From: an uncultured Methanosarcinales archaeon
GTDB lineage: Archaea > Nanobdellota > Nanobdellia > Woesearchaeales > UBA583
Length of the DNA: 58,414 nucleotides
Direction of reading: 5' to 3'
NCBI GenBank assembly: GCA_964562045.1
Contig: CAZLRR010000002.1
Location: 1 to 58,414, forward strand
Positions 9,057 through 58,366 of the stretch are shown one piece after another. Position 1 is the first letter of the stretch; each line of letters opens with the position of its first letter. Both the position numbers and the translations under genes were made by a program. The notes under the pieces are model-generated. The model did not search any database. It was given only the letters and a program-made list of their open reading frames with translations, and was not told the origin of the DNA.

Positions 9057-9354
9057 CCTTTATATTTTTTGGTTTTGAGCTTTATATATTTTTGGTAGAG
9101 GTGAGATTATTTTTTTTATTTTTAAATTTGACAAATAGTTTTATAAATTCTAAACACCTCATATTTCTTATGGAGAAGAAAAACTTAGTAAAAACTAGTG
9201 ATTGTCGGCCTAGACAATAGTTTATACTATAAAATTTCTTCAATAAAGGGACTTCCCGTATAATTCTAAATTAAAACAAAGACAACAAAGACTAGTATTT
9301 ACTAGAAACAAATTATTATTCGTATTTGAAATCACTTCAATTTAAAAGAAATAA

Positions 9355-9440
9355 AACCTCCCTCCTCCTCCTAAAAGTTCAAGTAAACTTAAACTTTTAG
9401 CCACACACCGAGGGTTCTTTGATTAAATGAAGAGATTTCC
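9355..9440 (+). repeat. R1 repeat family, short fragment: pyrimidine box, short hairpin, and a CCACACACCGAGG tail
   Basis: The tail ccgagggttctttgattaaatgaagagatttc is nearly identical to 51999-52029. The box cctccctcctcc matches the R1 inter-module linker. Confidence 0.7.
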
Positions 9441-11147: not shown

Positions 11148-11158
11148 TTTCATTTTGT

Positions 11159-11264
11159 TCCTTTGAATACCCCAACTTTTAAGTTGGGGATGAAACGTAT
11201 ATTTTAAGGGAGTGGTTAATACTCTATCATTTAGGCGCCAATAACTCAAATTTGTCGATTTTTG
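11159..11264 (-). mobile_element. R3 small insertion element, 106-bp copy, in inverted orientation relative to the copy at 47974-48104
   Basis: It aligns with the reverse complement of 47974-48104, including the hairpin ccccaacttttaagttgggg and the end motifs. Flanks are tttgt / tttat. Confidence 0.7.
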
Positions 11265-15530: not shown

Positions 15531-18500
15531 ATGGAGAGTTTTCCAATCATTGAGACCAGAAAAATTGAGGATTATGGTGATGATTCCAGTGTAGATTTGG
15601 CAGTGGAGACTATGAAGCAAGGAAAACAAGTTTTGATTTTTAATAATTCTAAGAGAAGTAGCGAGGCAACAGCAGATAAAGTTGCAAAGAAATATGTTGA
15701 AAGAGCAAATAATGAAGAACTTGAGAAGCTTTCTGAACAGATTTTGAAAGTATTACCAACTCCAACAACCCAGTGTAAAAGGTTAGCAAATGCGGTAAAA
15801 AAAGGTGTAGCATTTCATCATAGCGGTTTAGTAGGAAAACAAAGATCTTTAATCGAAAATGCATTCAAGCAAGGAATTTTGAAGGCGATTTCGAGCACCC
15901 CAACACTATGTTTGGCAAAAGGAACTAAGGTTTGGTCAAATAATAAAAAAATTTCTATAGAAAAATTAAAAACAAATCAGGTTTTCGCATTAAAAGATTC
16001 AAGTTTGAATTTAATCAAACCAGAAAAAGTTGAAAATAATGGGTATAGTGATGAATTAATTGAGATTGAAAGTGTTTCGAGTCATAAAATTAAAGCAACA
16101 AAGAACCACAAATTTCTGATTAGAAGGAAAGGGAAGAAATTAATTTTGCAAGCAAACGAAATTAAGAAAACTGATTTGATTGCAACAGTAGGAAAAATTG
16201 AGATTAAAGAAAAAAATTTGATGTTTTCACAGTTTATTTTGGACAATTCTTTTCCTCTTGAAGATAAAGAAATTCCTGCAGAAATATTTTATTTAATTGG
16301 TGCAATGTTGGGTGATGGTTATTCTGGGGCTGAGAAGAAAGGCAACAAAATAAAATATAAGGGAAGTCCTTCGATTGTTGGAGTTGATAATGAAACTTTT
16401 GACAGGGTTCGGTTTTCGTGCAAACTTTTAAGAATTTCTTATAGGAAAACAAAAAATATCTATGGGACTCCCCAGCTAGTATTGGGAAAAAATAATTGGT
16501 TTAGGGAATTTTTAGTTAGGTGTGGTGTTGATGTTAGTGTTAATAAAAACATTTCAGAAGAGTTGAAGTTGGCAAGTAAAGAGAAAATTTCTAACTTATT
16601 AAAAGGGCTTTTTGACACGGATGGTTATGCAGAAAAAAGAGGACAACTCGGATATTCTAGCATTTCTTTAGATTTAATTAAAGATGTTCAAGAACTGTTA
16701 TACAGGTTTGGTATTACATCTAGAATTAGAAAAAGAAAGAAGAAATCAATTAGAATTTCAAATAAAGAATATGATTGTAAAGATTCTTATGAATTAATAA
16801 TTGCTGAAAACAATTCTATGTTAAGCTTTTTTAATAATGTTGGTTTTAATATCAATAGGAAAAAAGAAGTTTTAGATGAAATAATTCATAAAATTCAACA
16901 AAATATTTTGTATAAAGAATGTAATTTTTGTAATTATAAGTTATATTCTGATTTGTTTGGGGGAAGAACAAAAAGTCAAAAAGATTGGGGAAATGCAAAA
17001 CTCTTAATAATAAAAAATTTAGAAAAGTTTGGTCCTTTAACTTCAAAAGATTTAACTAATAAAGTTGGGTTTGAAATTAGAAAGAATAGTTCTAGATTAA
17101 ATCATCACTACGAATTAATTGGAAAAACAAAATTTAGCAAATATGATTGGACTTGGAATTTAAATTCTATTGGGAAAACAATTTCTAAGGAATTAAAAAA
17201 TTCGTCTTATGAAGAAATTTTTGAGAGAACAAATTGTTTAGTTTGTGGAAACAAATTAAACGAAAACATAAGGAATAATTGGAAAAATTCAAATAAGGAT
17301 GGAGATATTTTTTGGGATCAAATTAAATCAATTAAGAAAATTAAAGAAGAAGTTGAAGTTTTTGATGTTGTTTTACCCTCAGATGATTCAAATGATCATT
17401 TGTTTGTTGCAGAAGGATTTATAACGCATAATTCTGCGGGGCTCAACCTTCCAGCATATAAAGTTATTATTCGAGATTATAAAAGGTATTCAAGATTTGG
17501 TTTTGCAGATATTCCCGTCTTGGAGTTTCATCAGATGGCTGGGCGTGCAGGAAGGCCAGGTTTAGAATTTGTTGGGAAAGCTGTTGTTTGCGTAAAAACT
17601 GAAGATGAACTTGCAAGAGTTACGAAAAAATATGTTTTCGGACAGGCCGAAGAAGTTATTTCAAAACTTGCTGTTGAGCCAACTTTGAAAATGTACATGC
17701 TCTCTCTTATTGCAATGGACATAATCAATACAAAACAGGAAATTAAAGACTTTTTCAAAAATACTTTATATGCTCATCAGTACCAAGATCATGAAGCTTT
17801 TAATTTTAATTTATTTAGGATTTTGAACATTTTAAAAGATTATAGATTTATTTCTCAAGAAGACGATTATTTTATGGCAACACCAATTGGAAAGAAAGTC
17901 TCAGAGCTTTATTTAAATCCAGATACGGCAAATTATTTTTATTCTAATCTTGACAAATTTATTAAAAAATTTTCAAATAGTAAAATTGGTAAAAATGACA
18001 TATATTCACTTCTTTATTTTGTTTCAGACACTTTGGAAATGAAACCTTTATTTAGCATTAGGAAAAATGATGAAGAAAGGTTACAGCTAAGGGCAGAAGA
18101 AGTGGCAGATGGTTTGATAGTTGGATTTGATCCTTATGAGATGGATTATAAGCAGTTTTTATCTCTTTTAAAGGTGAGTGATTTGTTTTTGGATTGGATT
18201 AGTGAAAAAAGTGAGGATTATTTGTGTGATTTATATGGCGTAACTCCAGGAGAAATGCAGTTTAAATTTGAAATTGTTGATTGGCTACTTTATGCTCTGG
18301 AGGAAATGGCTTTGATGAAAAAGAGTATTTTTGTTAAGAATTATTTGACGAAATTACGTCAGAGATTCAAATTTGGAGTAAAGGAAGAACTTTTGATGCT
18401 AATTAAATTAAAGGGGGTTGGAAGAGTTAGGGCTAGAAAGCTATATAACGCAGGATTTAAGACTTTAAATGATATCAGGAAGGCAAGTTCAGATGATTTA

Positions 18501-18698
18501 GTTAAAGTTATTTCGTCTGGTCTTGCTTTAAGTTTGAAAAAACAAATTGAAGGGAGTGAGATTGGAGAAAACAAACTTGCTTTGCCAAGAGAACTTCGTG
18601 CAAAAGAAGTAAGCGATGAGGAGATTGAAGTTTTGCTAAATAACGAGAAAGAATTCGAGAAACAAAAGAAAGGTGGAGGATTATTAGATTATTTCTAG
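15531..18698 (+). CDS. Hel308/Ski2-type DNA helicase, C-terminal part only (RecA2, WH, ratchet and HhH domains), interrupted by an intein
   Basis: Motif IV region QVLIFNNSKRS is present. GVAFHHSGL and STPTL|intein|SAGLNLPA represent motif V. Motif VI is QMAGRAGRPG. The C-terminal HhH is LIKLKGVGRVRARKLYNAGF. There is no Walker A or DExH domain. Confidence 0.85.
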   Translation: MESFPIIETRKIEDYGDDSSVDLAVETMKQGKQVLIFNNSKRSSEATADKVAKKYVERANNEELEKLSEQILKVLPTPTTQCKRLANAVKKGVAFHHSGLVGKQRSLIENAFKQGILKAISSTPTLCLAKGTKVWSNNKKISIEKLKTNQVFALKDSSLNLIKPEKVENNGYSDELIEIESVSSHKIKATKNHKFLIRRKGKKLILQANEIKKTDLIATVGKIEIKEKNLMFSQFILDNSFPLEDKEIPAEIFYLIGAMLGDGYSGAEKKGNKIKYKGSPSIVGVDNETFDRVRFSCKLLRISYRKTKNIYGTPQLVLGKNNWFREFLVRCGVDVSVNKNISEELKLASKEKISNLLKGLFDTDGYAEKRGQLGYSSISLDLIKDVQELLYRFGITSRIRKRKKKSIRISNKEYDCKDSYELIIAENNSMLSFFNNVGFNINRKKEVLDEIIHKIQQNILYKECNFCNYKLYSDLFGGRTKSQKDWGNAKLLIIKNLEKFGPLTSKDLTNKVGFEIRKNSSRLNHHYELIGKTKFSKYDWTWNLNSIGKTISKELKNSSYEEIFERTNCLVCGNKLNENIRNNWKNSNKDGDIFWDQIKSIKKIKEEVEVFDVVLPSDDSNDHLFVAEGFITHNSAGLNLPAYKVIIRDYKRYSRFGFADIPVLEFHQMAGRAGRPGLEFVGKAVVCVKTEDELARVTKKYVFGQAEEVISKLAVEPTLKMYMLSLIAMDIINTKQEIKDFFKNTLYAHQYQDHEAFNFNLFRILNILKDYRFISQEDDYFMATPIGKKVSELYLNPDTANYFYSNLDKFIKKFSNSKIGKNDIYSLLYFVSDTLEMKPLFSIRKNDEERLQLRAEEVADGLIVGFDPYEMDYKQFLSLLKVSDLFLDWISEKSEDYLCDLYGVTPGEMQFKFEIVDWLLYALEEMALMKKSIFVKNYLTKLRQRFKFGVKEELLMLIKLKGVGRVRARKLYNAGFKTLNDIRKASSDDLVKVISSGLALSLKKQIEGSEIGENKLALPRELRAKEVSDEEIEVLLNNEKEFEKQKKGGGLLDYF
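15909..17432 (+). mobile_element. Intein (508 aa) with a LAGLIDADG homing-endonuclease domain, inserted in helicase motif V
   Basis: The N-terminus is Cys (CLAKGTKV) and block B is TKNH. The two dodecapeptide motifs are LIGAMLGDGY and LLKGLFDTDGYA. It ends in the C-terminal HN followed by Ser+1. Confidence 0.9.
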
Positions 18699-32153: not shown

Positions 32154-33056
32154 ATGAAATTGAGGAAAAAAGAAAAAGCTAATAGTAATTTTTATGTTTT
32201 ACATTACAAGAAATTTTTGTTGTTGCCTTTGTTTTTAGTTATTTTGGCAGGGGTTTTTATTTCAAACGCAGTTTCAGAGGATGGAACTCCAATTTATCGA
32301 GACATTTCACTAAAAGGTGGACTTTCTGCGGTTATTACTACAGATTCCGAAGTTTCGGTTCAAGAATTTAAGACAGATTTACAGAAGAATTTCCCTCAAA
32401 ATTCTTTTGCGGTTTCTGAAATTTTTGAAGATGGACAAAGAACAGGATTTATTGTTGATACGGATTTGGGCGACAGGGAAATGTTTGAGTTTGTAGGTGA
32501 ATATTTCGAAAAAGAATTTGTTTCTGGAGATGATTATGTGTCAAATTTTATTAGTCCTTCTTTATCTTCGGCCTTTTTTCAGGACGCCGTTAAAGTTTTA
32601 ATTGTTTCTTTTGTTTTGATGTCTTTAGTAGTTTTTTTATATTTCAGAGAAAAAGTTCCTGCGGGTCTTGTTATTCTTTCTGCACTTTTTGATTTAATTG
32701 TTACCATAGGAGTATTGAATTTTTTGAGGTTTGAGGTTTCAGTTGCGGGAGTTGGTGCTCTTTTGATGCTTATTGGTTATTCGGTTGATACAGATGTTTT
32801 GTTAACTAATAGGATGGTTAAAGAAAAAGATTATCATACTCCTTTGGTTGAGAAGTTAAGTTCGGCGTGGAAAACTGGAACTTTGATGACTTTTACAACT
32901 TTAGCTGCTGCACTTACTGCGATTTTCTTAACAAATTCAGAAATTATTTTTGAAATTTCTTTTATCATTGTTATTGGTCTTATTGTTGATTATGTTTCAA
33001 CTTGGGGCTCTAATGCAGGTTTTCTATATTTGTGGCTTGAAAAGAAGAATCAATAA
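32154..33056 (+). CDS. secF: Protein-export membrane protein SecF
   Basis: It is 300 aa, with one N-terminal TM, a periplasmic domain and 5 C-terminal TM helices with an RND-like pattern (GYSVDTDVLL). Confidence 0.75.
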   Translation: MKLRKKEKANSNFYVLHYKKFLLLPLFLVILAGVFISNAVSEDGTPIYRDISLKGGLSAVITTDSEVSVQEFKTDLQKNFPQNSFAVSEIFEDGQRTGFIVDTDLGDREMFEFVGEYFEKEFVSGDDYVSNFISPSLSSAFFQDAVKVLIVSFVLMSLVVFLYFREKVPAGLVILSALFDLIVTIGVLNFLRFEVSVAGVGALLMLIGYSVDTDVLLTNRMVKEKDYHTPLVEKLSSAWKTGTLMTFTTLAAALTAIFLTNSEIIFEISFIIVIGLIVDYVSTWGSNAGFLYLWLEKKNQ

Positions 33057-33146
33057 TTTTTGTTCTTTTTCATTATTTCTTCGTTATATGATTGCCTTAT
33101 GCATGTAAACTACACTTAGTAATCAAATGCCTTGAAATGCCTCGAA
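33057..33146 (+). repeat. R2 post-stop-codon element, copy 1 (after secF)
   Basis: The conserved blocks tatttcttcgtt (33074-33085), ttatg and aatcaaatgcct (33121-33132) are shared with 41632-41710 and 51403-51480(-). Confidence 0.75.
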
Positions 33147-33194
33147 TTAATTAAAATAATTAAAATTTATAAATTTGGGGATTTATATCTATTT

Positions 33195-33500
33195 ATGTTG
33201 AAAAGAACATTTCTTGAATTTATTTTTTGGACTTGGTGTTTGCCACAATCTTTATTGGGTTTATTATTAATTTTTTTAGTATTAACAAATATTTTTGTAG
33301 GGACAAATATTCATAAAAAAGTTACATTAATTATAGTTAAAAAAAGATTTTTTCTTGCTGGCTTGTCTTTAGGAAAATACATTTTTATTAACGAATCCAG
33401 ATTTAATCAAAAGTTAATAAAACATGAATATGGCCATACAATTCAGAACTATATTTTGGGGCCCTTTTATTTGCCAGTATTGATTTTGCCTTCAATTTAA
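33195..33500 (+). CDS. Small membrane protein with an HExxH motif (putative membrane metalloprotease-like)
   Basis: KHEYGHTIQ contains HEYGH, and there are two TM helices. The ATG at 33195 lies about 25 nt after the TATA aaatttataaat. The TAA stop is followed by 35 in-frame sense codons. Confidence 0.45.
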   Translation: MLKRTFLEFIFWTWCLPQSLLGLLLIFLVLTNIFVGTNIHKKVTLIIVKKRFFLAGLSLGKYIFINESRFNQKLIKHEYGHTIQNYILGPFYLPVLILPSI

Positions 33501-40129: not shown

Positions 40130-40366
40130 ATATTTTAATTAAAACAGCTTTGATCGTATTATGTTATTTCAAGAAATCCTCGATTTCTAAGCCTTGATGT
40201 GATTTTCACATAAAGTTTTAAAAAATTGATTTTTCCCAAACCCCAAAATTTTCAACTTTCAATTTAAAATTTTCGTCCGAATTTAGACTAAGAAATAAAT
40301 TTCATAAGTTTCCAAACAAAGCCTTTAAAACGCAATGTTTATAAATTTTATAATTCTGTTATAATT

Positions 40367-40980: not shown

Positions 40981-41631
40981 ATGGGAATCGTTGCTGTTAT
41001 GTCAAATAAGTTTTCAGTAAAGCCTAGAATTCATAATCCTCAACTTGAGTTGTTAGATTTTTTAAAAGATTTACAAGCTTTAGAATCTAAACTTTGGGGA
41101 GTTATGGTTGTAGAGGTTCAGACAGGAGAGGAGAAAATTGTTGAGGATGTTAATCATTTAGTTTATGCATTAAATACTAAGTCTGAACATGAAATGGGAG
41201 AATTTTTACACAGTAGGGATTTTGCTGTATTTAAAAAAGATTTGGAGAATATGAGAAAAGATTTTCTTGCTTTGAGAAATAAGATTAAAAAACGTGAAAC
41301 ACTGAAAAATTTAATTACTGCATATACTATTAAATTGGTTGACGAACAGAATTATATGAGACTTGAGAAAATATTTTTACTTGAGAAACAGCTTAATGAT
41401 GTGATTGATAAACAGGACGAAGAGTTTTTGAAAATTATTTCTGATGTTAAAACATTGAAGTTTGGTGAGCATGATAGGGTTCAAAAGTTTTTGGATACTT
41501 TAAAACAATTGAGAAGTGTTTTGGGAGGACATTTAGATCATCATGATTTGTGGGAAGAAGAGCGGCAAGGTTATTCTAATGTTTCAAATATTGTTCATTC
41601 TTTGAAAAAAGCAGTTGCCGGAATTAATTAA
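40981..41631 (+). CDS. Hypothetical protein
   Basis: A 216-aa ORF with an ATG start. It looks mostly helical and charged. Confidence 0.5.
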   Translation: MGIVAVMSNKFSVKPRIHNPQLELLDFLKDLQALESKLWGVMVVEVQTGEEKIVEDVNHLVYALNTKSEHEMGEFLHSRDFAVFKKDLENMRKDFLALRNKIKKRETLKNLITAYTIKLVDEQNYMRLEKIFLLEKQLNDVIDKQDEEFLKIISDVKTLKFGEHDRVQKFLDTLKQLRSVLGGHLDHHDLWEEERQGYSNVSNIVHSLKKAVAGIN

Positions 41632-41710
41632 TTCTGCTTATTTTTCCTATTTCTTCGTTGTTTGGTTCCTTATGTATAAATATACACTGCGGAATCAAAC
41701 GCCTTGAACT
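41632..41710 (+). repeat. R2 post-stop-codon element, copy 2
   Basis: It has tatttcttcgtt at 41648-41659 and aatcaaacgcct at 41693-41704. It begins right after the stop at 41629-41631. Confidence 0.75.
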
Positions 41711-41769
41711 AGAAAAAATTAGCTAGAATTAATACTAAATTATTTAAAGGATATAAATATTTTATTTTT

Positions 41770-43131
41770 ATGAGTTTTTTAATAGATTCAACCGAATTTT
41801 ATTTGTTTATTACTTTGTCTACTTTTTTAGGACTAATATTTTTAAATAAATCTACTTTTCGAAAAAAGAAAAAAGGGGGCGGTTGGTTTGAAGATGTTGA
41901 TTGGTTAATTGAGCTATTTAATATTTCTGCATTATTTTTTTCATACATGGTTTTTCTAGGATTAATTTTAGCAACGATTTATTGTATTTTGTTTGTTGTA
42001 AATTCTTCTTCTGAGGAATTCTTTAATTTAGTCATGTCATTAACAAAATTAACTTTTCTTTTAGCAATACCTCTTTTGATTGCAGGAAGTAAAAAAATAT
42101 TTGTAAATAAGTTATCAATTAGAGAAATTGTTGAAAAAATAACTCCTTTATTTTTTATTTTAATAATAGTAAATTTTTTTGTGATTTTTTATGGGAATTA
42201 TTCTAATTCTTTTACAAATATATTATACAATTCATTTATTATTTATTATTTTATTGCGGCATATGTTTTTTATTTAATTTTTGGATATTATGGTATTGGT
42301 TTTAAAAAAAATTTTAGAGAGAATTGGAAATGTTATCTTTTCATTATAATTCTAATAATCGTTGGTTGTGTTTTCATATTTAATAAGAATACTATTGAAA
42401 AAACAAATTCAAATTTAGAGAGTTATTTTTGTGATGGGCGCGGTTGTTCGGCGTTATGGGTTGATTCTTATAACTATGATAAAACTGTCATTAATGACAA
42501 AATATTTGATTTTCATTATTATGATAAATTAATTTTTAATTATTCACAAAATAATGTTGAGTATTATGGAAAACCATTAAGAATTTTGTTTTATGACAAA
42601 GAAGGCAACTGGTTAGATGTAATTGAAAATCCCGAAGATAAAGTTGAAACCAAAAATTTTACCTTATATCTAGATTCTGAAAAAAAGAATATAATTGTGG
42701 ATATGGAAAATGAGGATTTTATGTCAAAGCTAAGTTCTATATCTATTTTAAGTTGGGAAAAGAGTTCTGAGAAAGTTAAAGGTTTACCACAGACATTTAA
42801 CCAACCCTCGTATATGGTTGATGCATATTTTGTTTGGTTAGATAGGAGAAATCCCGAATATGTTTTACATAAATTTAAAGATAAAGAAGTTATTTTTGAT
42901 GATTTTTGGGTTAGAATTTACCATAAAGAAAATTGTAGTTTTACAAATTTAACTAATTTACAAGGATTTTATCAACGTGTCTCATATTGTGAACCAACTA
43001 ACTGTCGATTAGAAAAAAAAGGAATAAATTTAAATTTCAGATTTACAAATAATAATAATATTTTGCTATCTGGAAACATAAAAGAAGGAATTTCAAATGT
43101 TTCTTTTGAATTGCCAGTTATTTGTGATTAA
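41770..43131 (+). CDS. Polytopic membrane protein with a C-terminal extracytoplasmic domain
   Basis: A 453-aa ORF with about 6 N-terminal TM helices. Confidence 0.55.
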   Translation: MSFLIDSTEFYLFITLSTFLGLIFLNKSTFRKKKKGGGWFEDVDWLIELFNISALFFSYMVFLGLILATIYCILFVVNSSSEEFFNLVMSLTKLTFLLAIPLLIAGSKKIFVNKLSIREIVEKITPLFFILIIVNFFVIFYGNYSNSFTNILYNSFIIYYFIAAYVFYLIFGYYGIGFKKNFRENWKCYLFIIILIIVGCVFIFNKNTIEKTNSNLESYFCDGRGCSALWVDSYNYDKTVINDKIFDFHYYDKLIFNYSQNNVEYYGKPLRILFYDKEGNWLDVIENPEDKVETKNFTLYLDSEKKNIIVDMENEDFMSKLSSISILSWEKSSEKVKGLPQTFNQPSYMVDAYFVWLDRRNPEYVLHKFKDKEVIFDDFWVRIYHKENCSFTNLTNLQGFYQRVSYCEPTNCRLEKKGINLNFRFTNNNNILLSGNIKEGISNVSFELPVICD

Positions 43132-47550: not shown

Positions 47551-48496
47551 ATGGAAGACAAATTAATAATTTTTGAGGACAAAAAGATTAGGAGAATTTG
47601 GTTTAATGAAGAATGGTATTATTCTGTTGTTGATATTATTGAAGTATTAGTTGAAGCAAGTATTCCTAGGAGATATTGGTCTGATTTGAAGGCTAAAATG
47701 CAAAAAGATGAAGGTTTTGAGTTGTACGATTTTATCGTACAACTGAAATTAGAGGCTTCTGACGGGAAGAAATATGTAACTGATTGTGCTAATACAAAAT
47801 CTATATTTCGTATAATTCAGTCAATCCCATCAAAAAGAGTTGAACCTTTCAAACAATGGTTTGCTCAATTAGGAGAAGAAAGACTTGATGAAATTCAAAA
47901 TCCTTCATTAGCAGTTGAAAGATCTAGAGAATATTATAGAACAAAGGGCTATCCAAAAGCATGGATTGATAAAGAAAAAATCGCTGACTCACTCTATCTC
48001 CACCTAAAGGATGGAGTATTACGAGCGAGTCTTATTCGCGATTTTTAGTCATTCCTTAGAATATACATTTCATCCCCAACTTAAAAGTTGGGGTATTCCA
48101 AGGAATAAAAGATTAGAATCAACTCAAATAAGACAAGATTTGACTGACGAATGGAACGAAAGAGGAATAAAAGAGAGAAAAGATTATGCTATTTTAACTA
48201 ATGAAATTCATAAGGCTACTTTTGATAAGAACATTAAAGAACATAAAGAATTCAAAGATTTATCTAAGAGAAATAACTTAAGAGATAATATGACAACTTT
48301 AGAATTGATTTTTTCAATGCTAGGAGAACATGCAACTAAGGAAATAACTAAATCTAAAGATTCAACTGGCTTTGGCGAATGTTTTGATAGTGCTCAAACG
48401 GGCGGAAAAATTGCAGGAAATGCAAGAAAAGAACTTGAAAAACAAACAAAGCAAAAAGTAATTTCTAAGGGTGGCGAGGTAAAGAGGTTGGAGTAA
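47551..48496 (+). pseudogene. Bro-N / DinD-like (DNA-damage-inducible protein D family) gene, split into two ORFs by a 131-bp insertion
   Basis: The N-terminal part is IRRIWFNEEWYYSVVDIIEVL...SIPSKRVEPFKQWFAQLGEERL. The C-terminal part is RLESTQIRQDLTDEWNERG...NLRDNMT. Deleting 47974-48109 (136 nt) restores one 269-aa frame. Confidence 0.75.
47974..48104 (+). mobile_element. R3 small insertion element (131 bp) flanked by a 5-bp direct repeat (ataaa)
   Basis: The direct repeats are at 47969-47973 and 48105-48109. There is an internal near-perfect 20-nt palindrome ccccaacttaaaagttgggg nested inside attccttagaata/tattccaaggaat. A second copy lies at 11159-11264. Confidence 0.7.
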
Positions 48497-48512
48497 TTTT
48501 TTAAAGTTAATT

Positions 48513-48793
48513 ATTTGAAATAATCTCAAATTATAAGAAAAAAAAGTTGGCATTTTTGTTATATGGGTTATTGAAGATTAAAATTTTAATAGATTTAATT
48601 CCCCAAACCTCCCCAAAAACTTCGTTTTTGCTAGCCAATTTTAGAATTAAAATCCTAATCTTTGAGATGTTATACAATACATTCTTGCCAACTTTTAAGA
48701 TGCCTTCAGCCTCCCCCTAAAAAATCCAATTTGTTTGTTTTTTAGTATGGATTTTTCAGCCACACCGAGGTCTTTAAATTAAGAGATTCAATC
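48513..48793 (+). repeat. R1 nested-hairpin repeat, copy a (module 1 complete, module 2 reduced to a short hairpin)
   Basis: Positions 48601-48699 are essentially identical to 58032-58130. The basal stem is aaaagttggca/tgccaactttt, the second hairpin is aaaaatcca/tggattttt, and the tail is cagccacaccgagg. Confidence 0.85.
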
Positions 48794-48969: not shown

Positions 48970-50820
48970 ATGGCAAAAGAAAAAGTATTAGGAATTGATT
49001 TAGGGACAACTAATAGTTGTATGTCTATTATTGAGAATGGAAAAGCGGTTGTTATTCCAAATTCTGAGGGTGGAAGAACAACCCCTTCTGTTGTGCACAT
49101 CACATCGAGTGGTGAGAGAATTGTTGGAGAGCCAGCAAAAAAACAAGCTATTGTTAAACCAAAAGAGACTGTTTCTTCAATTAAAACTCATATGGGTGAA
49201 GATTACAAGACAAATATTCACGGCAAAGATTACACTCCGCAGGAAATTTCTGCTATGACTTTAGCAAAACTAAAAAAAGATGCAGAAGCCTATGCAGGAA
49301 CAAAAATTAATAAGGCAGTAATTACAGTTCCTGCTTATTTTAGTGATGCACAAAGGCAGGCTACAAAAGATGCAGGAAAAATTGCAGGTTTTGACGTTGA
49401 GAGAATCATTAACGAGCCAACAGCAGCTGCACTTGCTTACGGAATGGATAAAGCAGATGCTCATAACGTTTTAGTTTTCGACTTTGGTGGTGGAACTTTT
49501 GATGTTTCAGTTTTAGAACTTGATGATGGAGTTTTCGAGGTAAAAGCAACAGCAGGAGACAATCATTTAGGTGGAGATAATATTGATAAAATCCTTGTTG
49601 ATTATATTGCTGATGAATTCAAAAAAGAACATGGAATTGATTTAAGAGAAGACCCTCAGTCAGCTCAAAGAATCAAAACTGCGGCAGAAAAAGCAAAAAT
49701 TGAATTATCCTCAAAATTAGAAACTGAAATTTCTGAGCCTTTTATTACTGCGGATGCAAGTGGTCCTAAACACCTTGAGATGAAAATTACAAGATCTAAG
49801 TTTAATGATTTAATTTCTGGAATTTTGGATAAACTAAAAAAACCAACAGAACAGGCGATTAAAGACTCCAAACTGAAAATTTCTGAAATCAATAAAGTTC
49901 TTTTAGTTGGAGGTTCAACAAGAATTCCTGCAGTTCAGGAACTTGTAAAATCTATCTCTGGAAAAGATGCAGACAAATCTGTAAATCCTGATGAGGCGGT
50001 TGCTTTAGGTGCTGCAATTCAGGCTGGAGTTTTAGCAGGAGAAGTTAAAGATGTATTGCTTTTAGATGTAACTCCTCTGTCTTTAGGAATTGAGACATTA
50101 GGTGGTGTGTTTACAAAAATGATTGATAAAAACACAACAATCCCAACTAAAAAGTCTCAAGTTTATTCAACTGCTGAAGATAATCAGAGTGCTGTAACTA
50201 TTAGAGTTGCTCAGGGAGAGAGGGCAATGTTTGCTGACAATAAATTGTTGGGTCAGTTTAATTTAGAAGGAATTCCGCCTGCGCCAAGAGGTGTTCCTCA
50301 GATTGAAGTTACATTTGACATTGATGCAAACGGTATTGTTAATGTAAAAGCAAAAGATTTAGGGACTGGAAAAGAGCAGGAGATAAAGATTGTTGCATCC
50401 TCAAATCTAACTGATGAAGATATTAAAAAGATGCAAGAAGAAGCAGAAAAACATGCTGAAGAAGATAACAAGAGAAAAGAAGAAATCGAAACAGTAAATA
50501 GGGCGGAAAATCTTGTATACCAAACTAAGAAAACACTTGATGAGAATAAAGATAAAGTTGACCAGAAACAAGTGTCTCCTTTAATGGAGCAAGTAAAAGA
50601 ACTTGAAGAACTTCTAAAAGCCGAAAAAAGAGATATTGAAAAAATCAAAGCAAAAGAAGAAGAAATCACTAAAAAAGCTCAGGAAATGTATAGTGCAATG
50701 TATCAACAAGCTGGGGCTCAAACAGGCGCTGAGGGTCCAAAAGAAGATAAAAAGGAAGATGATGTAGTCGATACGGAAGCTACAGAAAAAGATAAGAAAG
50801 AAGATAAAAAGAAGAAATAA
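48970..50820 (+). CDS. dnaK: Molecular chaperone DnaK (Hsp70)
   Basis: It has [15 protein letters not shown] and [11 protein letters not shown], and a Lys/Glu-rich C-terminal tail. Confidence 0.97.
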
Positions 50821-50874
50821 TTAAAAAATAGGCATTAAGGATCTTTTTTCTTTTTTCTAACTCTATTTGCTTCC

Positions 50875-51276
50875 TTATTTTTTAAAATAAGCAGCAGCTT
50901 CTTCATATTGTCTTTTTTTGTCGATTTTAGATGGAAAAATTATTTTACCTTTGGGAGTTATAGATTTTTGAAATGAAAAAAATAATTTTACATCATAACT
51001 TTGGGGATGAAGATTTAAACCATTATATAATAAACCTCTACTAGAATAAAACCATCTGTTTGGATTTTGAGTTAAACAAATACCTTTTTGAGTTTCGAAA
51101 TCTCGATTCTCGGGTTTTTGGTTTACAATTAAATGTCCATATGTTTCTAGATATGAAACTAATTGGAAAATATTTTGTGGCTGATATGTAGTAAAATCGA
51201 AGGAAGTTAGTATTCCAAAATCTTTTTGTACTTTACGAAGTGTGGGTTCAAGACCACAAAGAGGAAATTTTGTCAT
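50875..51276 (-). CDS. Hypothetical protein
   Basis: A 133-aa ORF with an ATG start. I recognised no motif. Confidence 0.45.
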   Translation of the reverse strand: MTKFPLCGLEPTLRKVQKDFGILTSFDFTTYQPQNIFQLVSYLETYGHLIVNQKPENRDFETQKGICLTQNPNRWFYSSRGLLYNGLNLHPQSYDVKLFFSFQKSITPKGKIIFPSKIDKKRQYEEAAAYFKK

Positions 51277-51402
51277 TAATATTATTGTATTTGCGGATTT
51301 ATAAAAGAAATTGCGAAATTTTCGTCAGTTTGCTTAATTTAGGAAGAGGAATATAACAAAACTGATTTTCAAAAACAGAAATTTTAAGATAGTTTTAATT
51401 AG

Positions 51403-51480
51403 TTTGAGGCATTTGATTTTTAAGTGCAACTTGTGTGCATAAAACAAATAACGAAGAAATAGTTAAAAATAGCTAAAATT
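51403..51480 (-). repeat. R2 post-stop-codon element, copy 3 (after tfs, minus strand)
   Basis: On the minus strand, tatttcttcgtt is at 51450-51461 and aatcaaatgcct is at 51407-51418. It begins right after the tfs stop at 51481-51483. Confidence 0.75.
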
Positions 51481-51801
51481 TTATTTATAGTCTCTCCATT
51501 GGTGTTTACATTTAACACATTTGAAAAATTGAGTTTCTGGTTCATCTGCTGCTCTTGTTTGTTGTGACCAGAAATATGCTTTTGGATTACCACATTTTGG
51601 ACATTCAACATCAGTAATTGGATGAATCTCTGCTGAGGAATCATCCTTGTCAACAACTTCAATTTCTTCTTTTTTTTTGATTTTCTCGCTTAAATTAATT
51701 GTTGATTTTGCTTTGTTTTCGTGTCCACAACTTGGACAGTTTACAGCTTCTCCTTTTTTTCCAATAATTATTGCTCCACATTTATTACAAAAATCTACCA
51801 T
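51481..51801 (-). CDS. tfs: Transcription factor S (TFS / RpoM-like)
   Basis: The N-terminal Zn ribbon is FCNKCG...CPSCG. The C-terminal Zn ribbon is CPKCG...CVKCKHQW, with the acidic loop TRAADEPET. I placed the start at ATG 51801. Confidence 0.85.
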   Translation of the reverse strand: MVDFCNKCGAIIIGKKGEAVNCPSCGHENKAKSTINLSEKIKKKEEIEVVDKDDSSAEIHPITDVECPKCGNPKAYFWSQQTRAADEPETQFFKCVKCKHQWRDYK

Positions 51802-51879
51802 ATTAGTATTTAGAACGTTCAACTTAAAAAGGTTTGTTTTTTAGGGCTCTGTCCGGAATATAAAACAAACCTATTTTTA

Positions 51880-52030
51880 GAAAATTGATTTCCCCAAACC
51901 TCTCCAAAAACTTTGTTTTTGCAGCCAATGTTACATTTAAAAACCTAAATTTCTTATTGTTAAAATAATTAATTCTGTCAAAACTTTCATCCACGCGCCG
52001 AGGTTTCTTTGATTAAATGAAGAAATTTCT
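51880..52030 (+). repeat. R1 repeat, single-module fragment (apical region, right arm and tail)
   Basis: tccccaaacctctccaaaaactttgtttttgcagccaatgttacat plus the right arm and tail match module 2 of the copies at 56100-56230 and 58200-58320. The tail variant is shared with 9404-9440. Confidence 0.75.
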
Positions 52031-55839: not shown

Positions 55840-55850
55840 TTATTCTTTTT

Positions 55851-56256
55851 GAATTTGAAAACATATCAATTTATAAGAAATAAAAATTTGGCATTTTTGT
55901 TATCTGAGTTTTTAAAAGATTAAGATTTTAATAGATTTTTGTCCCCAAACCTCCTCAAAAATTTCATTTTTGCTAGCCAAGAATAGAATTAAACTCCTAA
56001 TCTTTGAGAGGTTATAAAAGAAATTCTTGCCAACTTTTAAGTTTCCTTTCACCTCTCCCTAAAGTTTTGATATTTTTGTTATATTATATAGTAAAAATTT
56101 GGGTTTAATTGACTTTCCCCAAGCCTCCCTCTCGCTTTGCTAGGCAGCCAATGTTACATCTAAAAACCCAAATTTCTTATTGTTAAAAAGTTAATTCTGT
56201 CAAAACTTTCAGCTCACGCACTCAAGGTCTTAAATCTAAGAGATAAATTCAAATTC
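55851..56256 (+). repeat. R1 nested-hairpin repeat, copy b (two complete modules)
   Basis: It is collinear with 57942-58345. The short termini gaatttgaa / ttcaaattc are inverted. Confidence 0.85.
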
Positions 56257-56263
56257 TAAAACA

Positions 56264-57912: not shown

Positions 57913-58366
57913 CTGAAGTTATGCGTTTTTTATCTTAGGTGTTTGAAATAATTTCTAATTATAAGAAATAAAAAAGTTGGCATTTTTGTTATATGAGTTC
58001 TTAAAAGATTAAGATTTTAATAGATTTTTGTCCCCAAACCTCCCCAAAAACTTCGTTTTTGCTAGCCAATTTTAGAATTAAAATCCTAATCTTTGAGATG
58101 TTATACAATACATTCTTGCCAACTTTTAAGTTTCCTCCCTCCTCCATAAAGTTTTGACATTTTTGTTATATTAGATAGTATAAATTTGGGTTTAATTGAG
58201 TTTTCCCCAAGCCTCCCCCTCGCTTTGCTCGGCAGCCAATGTTACATCTAAAAACCCAAATTTCTTGTTGTTAAAATAGTTAATTCTGTCAAAACTTTCA
58301 GCTCACGCGCTCGAGGCCTTAAAAGTAAGAGATAAATTCAAATTCCTAAAAAACGCATAACTTCAG
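57913..58366. repeat. Perfect 19-bp inverted repeat (57913-57931 ctgaagttatgcgtttttt; 58348-58366 aaaaaacgcataacttcag) that brackets R1 copy c
   Basis: I checked the exact reverse complementarity by hand. Confidence 0.9.
57942..58345 (+). repeat. R1 nested-hairpin repeat, copy c (two complete modules)
   Basis: Module 1 stems are aaaagttggca/tgccaactttt and aaagattaagatttt/aaaatcctaatcttt. Module 2 stems are aaagttttgaca/tgtcaaaacttt and aaatttgggttt/aaacccaaattt. Confidence 0.9.

Follow-up and report, generated by a model that had tools for sequence, protein, structure and literature searches.

We analyzed a 58,414-bp contig of a "Nanoarchaeota archaeon" MAG (DPANN; 30% G+C) over its whole length, which is referred to below as the window. 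This contig contains three homologous, hairpin-forming copies (c1, c2, and c3), each of about 105 nt, of an element named here R2. The copies lie 8–10 kb apart amid housekeeping genes and are carried by 3 of the approximately 57 genes of the window. Their positions, together with those of the host genes and of the blocks that they share, are the following.

32154–33056, plus strand: secF (PF02355), host gene of c1
33055–33168, plus strand: R2 copy c1, 114 nt, flush after secF, with decayed palindromy; covariance model score of 89.6 bits; local alignments against c2 and c3 cover 33047/33055 to 33168/33174
33125–33144, plus strand: 10-nt tandem duplication within c1 (AAATGCCTTG / AAATGCCTCG), opposite a gap of c3 in the c1–c3 alignment
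40981–41631, plus strand: gene for a 216-aa hypothetical protein, downstream of grpE, host gene of c2
41627–41733, plus strand: R2 copy c2, 107 nt, flush after the 216-aa gene, the most intact palindrome, with ends ATTAATTCTGC...GCTAGAATTAAT
41734–43129, plus strand: strain-variable segment with a promoter and a 453-aa ORFan gene (from blastn of strain L026 against the window)
51379–51481, minus strand: R2 copy c3, 103 nt, flush after tfs, a moderately intact palindrome, with ends AAATTTTAGC...CTTAAAATTT; covariance model score of 89.5 bits
51481–51801, minus strand: tfs (transcription factor S, 106 aa; PF01096), host gene of c3
33074–33085 (plus), 41648–41659 (plus), and 51450–51461 (minus): invariant 12-mer TATTTCTTCGTT
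33121–33132 (plus), 41693–41704 (plus), and 51407–51418 (minus): conserved block AATCAAAYGCCT

A sequence-only reading of this DNA had already proposed three copies with shared blocks at these loci, and the proposal was borne out, with profile and covariance model scores far above those expected by chance. A search by nhmmer with a profile of the three copies, suggested in that reading for the whole genome and run here on the window, returned only the same three sites, with E values from 1e-19 to 1e-22 and a next match at E = 0.93, whereas the covariance model (filters off) assigned 89–95 bits to the three copies and 19.7 bits to the best match elsewhere in the window. No further copies were found by either method within these 58 kb. 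The exact 12-mer TATTTCTTCGTT occurs three times in the window, as does AATCAAAYGCCT; when one mismatch was allowed, 10 matches to the 12-mer were observed versus 1.16 expected, the additional ones corresponding to T-rich sequences or to antisense runs of Lys/Glu codons. The 12-mer starts 17, 16, and 19 nt past the stop codons of secF, the 216-aa gene, and tfs, respectively, and, also as described earlier, TTATG and CACT lie between TATTTCTTCGTT and AATCAAAYGCCT, the spacing between blocks being 47, 45, and 43 nt. The copies are 75–85% alike, and the run of 12 invariant columns within TATTTCTTCGTT has a p of about 0.04 by rough estimate. Since unrelated coding sequence flanks each copy, R2 is a dispersed repeat and not the product of a segmental duplication, and an all-against-all search revealed no paralogues within the window.

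In contrast to the 60–90 nt assigned at first, which was too short, the unit measures 103–114 nt and extends 22–24 nt further in the 3' direction. Pairwise local alignments showed homology from the last 1–2 nt of the stop codon to positions 33168, about 41733, and 51379, respectively, with termini that read AATT(T/C)T...A(A/G)AATT. The claim that the element starts after the stop codon was thus right as to its flush placement, although its exact start corresponds to the last 1–2 nt of the stop codon itself. No ORF longer than 6–11 codons is present in any copy (103–114 nt), and no ORF or tRNA overlaps R2. A conserved small peptide was also discarded, as the conserved ATG would give MHVNYT, MHTSCT, and MYKYTLRNQTP, each ended by a stop whose position is not conserved.

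Other repeats and features were also detected along the contig. A second non-coding repeat family, of about 400 nt and 82–91% identity, was found at positions 55842–56261, 57930–58351, and 48502–48713, with related pieces at 51871–52029, 9313–9439, and 40212–40259. Two of its copies are located upstream of dnaK and dnaJ and a short piece upstream of grpE, the contig ends inside one copy, and no Rfam match was obtained for it; this family could represent a shared heat-shock promoter/operator region or a non-coding RNA. A 57-nt repeat with a GC hairpin (CCCCAACTTTTAAGTTGGGG) appears at 11153–11209, 6 nt past the stop of the ProRS gene, and as an inverted copy at 48054–48110, 6 nt past the stop of a Bro-N gene. 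As the ProRS flank holds an inverted fragment of the 3' end of the Bro-N gene, this is a duplicated gene-end fragment rather than an independent repeat. In addition, positions 1–285 comprise three tandem 95-nt units, each with a sequence similar to the 3' half of a tRNA (...CAAATCCCAGTCCTGACG), and a fuller tRNA-like sequence precedes such units at positions 9300–9620 of L034, a contig that adds 9.4 kb of same-species DNA beyond the window. ARAGORN called no tRNA in the window, and the units may correspond to att sites of an integrative element that were duplicated, to pieces of a split tRNA, or to an artefact of assembly. About 300 nt to the left of the window start (L034, 8990–9160), many iterated boxes of the TTGTCTAAAT type in both orientations lie within a 950-nt intergenic region, a cluster that, judged by its sequence, looks like a replication origin (ORB/iteron) or an iteron cluster of plasmid or virus type; if it were oriC, the whole window would be on one replichore. 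Finally, a gene for a 1055-aa archaeal helicase with a Helicase_dom4_arc domain, probably of the Hel308 type, is located at 15531–18698, its sequence being split by an intein that holds a LAGLIDADG homing endonuclease domain.

The distribution of R2 was followed in DNA of the same species (98–100% identity), available from GCA_048615555.1, GCA_048624195.1, and three Logan runs, and in related species. In the 3–5 assemblies of the species, every contig that covers one of the sites carries the same R2 copy, the single strain difference being an A/G SNP in c3, on the 3' strand of the inner stem. Neither presence/absence polymorphism nor an empty site was detected among these sampled strains, and no extra copies appeared in about 45 kb of DNA from other strains or in the 9.4 kb of L034. 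The next-closest SecF is 60% identical, with values of 57–60% for two of the three related species compared. In the relative with this 60% identical SecF (L032/L033), 54 nt lie between secF and a convergent gene, and in another (L040) only 31 nt separate it from the next gene, in both cases with no R2. Moreover, about 50 kb from the three related species (L032/33, L039–41) gave no nhmmer or covariance model match, although the relatives compared are too distant to yield empty sites. The absence of R2 from relatives and its presence in all sampled strains indicate that it is lineage-specific and young compared with divergence at the genus or family level. Wider collections were scanned with a two-block pattern (ATTTCTTCGTT-N20-50-AATCAAAYGCC), which returned 7 matches in GTDB genomes, 17 in JGI metagenomes, and 1 in IMG/VR, none of them fitting the profile and all located in unrelated GC-richer taxa or in coding DNA; R2 was therefore not found outside this species. 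Rfam 15 gave no match at gathering thresholds and none overlapping R2 at E ≤ 10.

Analysis of the symmetry of the copies revealed self-reverse-complement scores of 68 for c2 and 44 for c3, which were reached by none of 500 shuffles in either case, and of 19 for c1, which was reached by 368 of 500 and is thus not above shuffles. Among 5831 sliding windows of the contig, with a 99th percentile of 35, c2 had the top score and c3 was among the highest. The hairpin-prone core noted in the first reading does exist, but the whole unit is an imperfect palindrome, which had been overlooked. Likewise, the T-rich lead-in is present, though not as a separate element: it constitutes the left arm of the unit and pairs with an A-rich right arm, the left arm of each copy being the best complement to its own right arm. 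The consensus from RNAalifold is a single hairpin of 34 pairs, with 91.9% of cells paired. The RNA form of c2 has an MFE of −34.6 kcal/mol (z = −7.5) and its DNA form one of −18.3 (z = −5.6), whereas c1 and c3, although of the same topology, are no more stable when folded than shuffled sequences.

The covariation check proposed with the original observation was positive, as 8 of the 34 pairs had changed on both sides, against 3.0 ± 1.3 in shuffles (0 of 500 as high) and 0–2 in controls with slid partners. The helix covariation described earlier is therefore real, although it concerns merely the inner third of the hairpin. TATTTCTTCGTT covers the innermost part of the outer helix together with an internal loop that is conserved, and AATCAAAYGCCT forms the 3' strand of the inner helix and a loop. 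Neither of these blocks is the reverse complement of the other, an asymmetry that gives R2 its orientation. All three copies are in the sense orientation with respect to their host genes, as had been stated; however, with n = 3, a chance probability of about 0.125–0.25, and a nearly symmetric element, this is not significant. Together, the covariation of the arms and the invariant 12-mer hint at constraint beyond neutral decay.

Conserved blocks and a covarying hairpin would also be expected if R2 encoded a separate small RNA, or gave rise to a 3'-derived sRNA, of about 60–90 nt, and in c3 a TATA-like sequence coincides in part with the stop codon of tfs, some 25 nt ahead of the 12-mer. However, c1 and c2 have no comparable promoter-like sequence, no consistent T-tract marks a fixed 3' end, and two of the three copies are thermodynamically unremarkable. 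Promoter and terminator signals are not consistent among the copies, Rfam yielded nothing that overlaps R2 up to E ≤ 10, inspection of both strands by eye showed neither C/D nor H/ACA boxes, and relatives have no counterpart; we regard this sRNA option, one of three put forward in the sequence-only reading, as extremely unlikely. In particular, neither C (RUGAUGA) nor D (CUGA) boxes were seen on either strand of R2. Identification as a C/D box, H/ACA, K-turn, BHB, CIRCE, or dif/Xer element was rejected by eye, and a DGR VR/TR pair was also rejected, since the copies do not differ specifically at A residues and neither the scanned proteins nor the gene tables revealed an RT.

As regards the host genes, the C-terminus of SecF aligns end-to-end with its homologues and is thus intact, so that R2 did not truncate secF. 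The exact TFS protein was found in four contigs of the same species and ends in ...KHQWRDYK, which we take to be the usual C-terminus of archaeal TFS. Every copy contains a T5 tract in its left arm, 11–16 nt past the stop, and the right arm of c2 has a T6 tract in its reverse complement. Tracts of five or more T residues at 5–15 nt past stop codons are common on this contig, for example after grpE and gyrB, in agreement with oligo-dT being the intrinsic termination signal of archaea. When R2 is removed from the flanks, what follows the stop codon of tfs (TAA/CTGTTTTTG) and that of the 216-aa gene in strain L026 (TAA/..CTATTGTATTTTTTT) looks like a native terminator, judging from its letters; the flank of secF beyond R2 corresponds to a TATA-like box belonging to the following gene. 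Prior to insertion, these intergenic spaces would have measured about 26, 15, and 102 nt. Besides these sites, T-rich stretches that resemble the left arm of R2, such as CTATTTTTTAATTATTTCTTCTTT (minus strand), occur at the stop and 3' flank of dnaK (50805–50890); these low-complexity stretches, to which nhmmer gave no support, may be what is left of a degenerate R2 copy, or may resemble it by chance.

Assuming uniform intergenic insertion, sites flush with a stop codon represent, by rough estimate, about 3–10% of the permissible positions for each copy. On that estimate, the flush placement of all three copies is significant, and it constitutes the main unexplained feature of R2. It could reflect selection in a compact genome, a target preference for terminators or stop-proximal sequences, or both, whereas a simple AT-rich target does not account for it.

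Such placement would also be expected if R2 were a selected cis-acting 3' UTR or terminator RNA, in which hairpin and T-tracts terminate transcription (in both directions) or block 3' exonucleases and which was duplicated because it is useful. The T5 tract of every left arm, which follows the generic terminator pattern of this contig, and the pairing kept via compensatory changes agree with this proposal, as does the location of c2 in strain L026, between convergent genes and with T-tracts on both strands. However, the T5 tract lies upstream of the hairpin, so that most transcripts would end before the structure forms, and apparent native terminators remain in the flanks once R2 is removed. 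In addition, R2 is not conserved after secF in two relatives nor matched in the loci of three, it follows only 3 of about 57 genes, and c1 and c3 do not fold better than shuffles. Our results thus weaken this second option of the sequence-only reading, and we consider it unlikely.

A further trait of the c2 locus is the strain-variable segment of 1.4 kb, which starts at the right end of c2 (...GAATTAAT/), within a few nt. In GCA_048615555.1, about 18 nt occupy the place of this segment, and the Logan contig L038 ends exactly at 41733. The membrane-like 453-aa protein that it encodes has no homologue among 5.8 billion proteins, and its insertion alters the C-terminus of the convergent gene for an Nre-domain protein, which ends in ...EFFNHK versus ...EFF. 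In strain L026, c2 is located between convergent genes with a spacer of only about 15 nt. The termini of R2 may be recombinogenic, but this short spacer makes the coincidence of the breakpoint only mildly informative.

The genes downstream of c2 and c3 are ORFans. The gene after c1 (33195–33500) encodes a 101-aa membrane protein with a HEYGH motif, which belongs to a small family and does not have the approximately 30 C-terminal residues found in all its homologues, making it a possible pseudogene as far as can be read from its sequence; a full-length homologue follows grpE in another Nanoarchaeota genome. A rule by which R2 and an ORFan would form a cassette is weakened by the homologues of this gene, one of them beside grpE in another species. 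A role of R2 as a 5' leader or operator was rejected as well, because the next start is about 26, 36, and 102 nt away and c2 of L026 has no co-oriented downstream gene.

The presence or absence of the 1.4-kb ORFan at the right terminus of c2, together with two ORFans among the three downstream genes and the different gene content of the secF–gyrB interval in a relative, would be accounted for if R2 were a folded single-stranded DNA recombination site similar to integron attC or REP/RAYT, with a recombinase acting at its end and cassettes being gained and lost. The conserved structure, with covariation and conserved internal loops, and the location directly after ORFs in the sense orientation point in the same direction. 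In contrast, the R''/R' core (RYYYAAC...GTTRRRY) is missing at the ends of R2, no integrase or recombinase was found in the Pfam tables of the window, the copies are scattered among housekeeping genes and form no array, and no second R2 closes the variable segment at its other end. Indeed, beyond the 453-aa gene or the other downstream genes, the search for a second R2 end produced only low-complexity T-rich matches without nhmmer support. With a spacer of about 15 nt in L026, a breakpoint at the end of the palindrome is not very improbable by itself, and the 101-aa downstream gene comes from a family with a member beside grpE in another relative. We consider it very unlikely that R2 is such a recombination site.

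The option of a mobile element at gene ends, also contemplated in the sequence-only reading, fits best with the palindromic architecture, the non-coding character, the dispersion, the absence of R2 from relatives, and the decaying palindromy of two of the three copies, although the "site-specific" part of that option is only hinted at by the flush placement after stop codons. R2 probably represents a small repeat family of the MITE/ERIC/RUP/REPIN type, palindromic, non-autonomous, and without coding capacity. The copies would have arisen by insertion, mobilized in trans by a transposase encoded elsewhere, which may be a DDE enzyme that reads terminal inverted repeats or a Y1/RAYT-like one that reads a single-stranded hairpin. 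The point of insertion would lie exactly 3' of WTAA, with R2 separating the stop codon from the T-tract terminator native to the gene. The site after the stop would be almost the sole harmless place in a very compact genome, and survival could have been favoured further by the oligo-T tract that each arm supplies, with which upstream transcripts would still terminate. Decay since insertion would then have left c2 intact, c3 partly decayed, and c1 without significant palindromy and with a 10-nt duplication.

The termini of R2 are AT-rich and palindromic, which makes its boundaries ambiguous by ±2 nt. With this margin, a candidate target-site duplication TA/TA fits c2, whereas TA/CT is found at c3, and in c1 the ancestral stop of secF would be lost if TA had been duplicated. 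All three copies are compatible with insertion 3' of WTAA and no duplication, a target that would also account for their sense orientation. No transposase or recombinase is encoded in the 58-kb window, and no transposase was found in the 9.4 kb of L034. A related Nanoarchaeota species (L040, 10300–11872) carries an insertion sequence that measures about 1.57 kb, encodes a DDE_Tnp_1 transposase, and has inverted repeats of 21 nt (CAAGTTTGACAGT...), which shows that this lineage harbours active DDE insertion sequences. This insertion sequence was rejected as the parent of R2, as its inverted repeats CAAGTTTGACAGT are unrelated to the ends of R2.

A more specific proposal, which we hold to be doubtful, regards R2 as a mobile element, or a recombination site, of DPANN archaea that depends on its hairpin and specifically targets the junction between a TAA stop codon and the oligo-T terminator. 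The coding strand would dictate its orientation, R2 would supply T-tract terminators acting in both directions, and its termini would seed the gain and loss of ORFans, such as the 1.4-kb gene at c2. We know of no description of such a "terminator-homing" strategy for archaeal mobile DNA. The less ordinary side of R2 is its exact location between stop codon and native terminator, in a genome with hardly any intergenic DNA to spare, along with its own T-tracts. If analysis of the whole genome confirmed this, R2 would illustrate that landing in terminators and rebuilding them allows selfish DNA to persist in extremely reduced archaeal genomes, and it would provide a natural set of portable archaeal terminator modules. 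If the MITE-like nature of R2 is true, it adds one more small palindromic repeat of a kind already reported to be dense in DPANN, of use as a strain marker and as an explanation of assembly breaks, and it cautions against naming 3' UTR "riboregulators" from few repeats.

When compared with known systems, R2 resembles integron attC sites, which are imperfect palindromes of 57–141 nt with R'' (RYYYAAC) and R' (GTTRRRY) cores, in being an imperfect palindrome placed directly after an ORF in a fixed orientation, with structure kept more than sequence, and in that a gene-sized indel begins at its end. Unlike attC, it has neither R''/R' cores nor an integrase nor an array, and the junction of the indel is at the end of the palindrome and not inside it. 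With archaeal oligo-dT terminators, R2 shares the T5 tract 11–16 nt past the stop, present in every copy as in many genes of the contig; however, ordinary terminators here are short and non-homologous, whereas R2 adds about 90 nt of conserved palindrome that termination does not need.

Similarity to REPINs, in which two conserved blocks, a hairpin spacer, and compensatory changes have been described (PMC3116915), is more extensive. Like REPIN/RAYT elements and the PATEs derived from IS200/IS605, R2 folds into a hairpin about 100 nt long, in which a spacer whose pairing is kept by compensatory changes separates two invariant blocks. It also shows no evident target-site duplication, and insertion 3' of WTAA would explain its flush position and orientation. 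On the other hand, its invariant blocks are not inverted copies of each other, it has no tag of the GTAG/CGTC type, and no RAYT or IS200-like gene is near R2 in the window. The strands of the copies (plus, plus, minus) also differ from the uniform strand predicted by strand-specific insertion of single-stranded DNA on one replichore.

Finally, R2 was compared with MITEs, whose sizes range from about 50 to 800 bp and which among archaea occur in Sulfolobus and haloarchaea; those with stem-loops include RUP (107 bp), ERIC/IRU (127 bp), and Correia/NEMIS (105–157 bp). R2 differs from them in that it has no established target-site duplication or TA-flanked ends and no known parent IS with matching ends, and in that only three copies were seen in the 58-kb window plus 9.4 kb, all of them flush with a stop codon. 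The likeness is one of architecture. R2 shares with MITEs a length of about 100–130 nt, an AT-rich and non-coding sequence, and multiple dispersed copies in intergenic DNA beside gene ends, in this case three in 58 kb behind unrelated genes. As in MITEs, terminal inverted repeats pair the ends into one long hairpin, which reaches the termini in c2 and c3 and has decayed in c1. The 75–85% likeness between copies is also in line with MITEs, which can carry transcription signals (PMC2229807, PMC10969869). In bacterial MITEs of about 107–127 bp, the 5' and 3' ends form stem-loops (PMC2229807), and a survey found MITE densities in DPANN/Woesearchaeal genomes among the highest in archaea (PMC11602168). 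In conclusion, R2 is most likely an addition to this known class of miniature palindromic mobile repeats rather than a new regulatory RNA.
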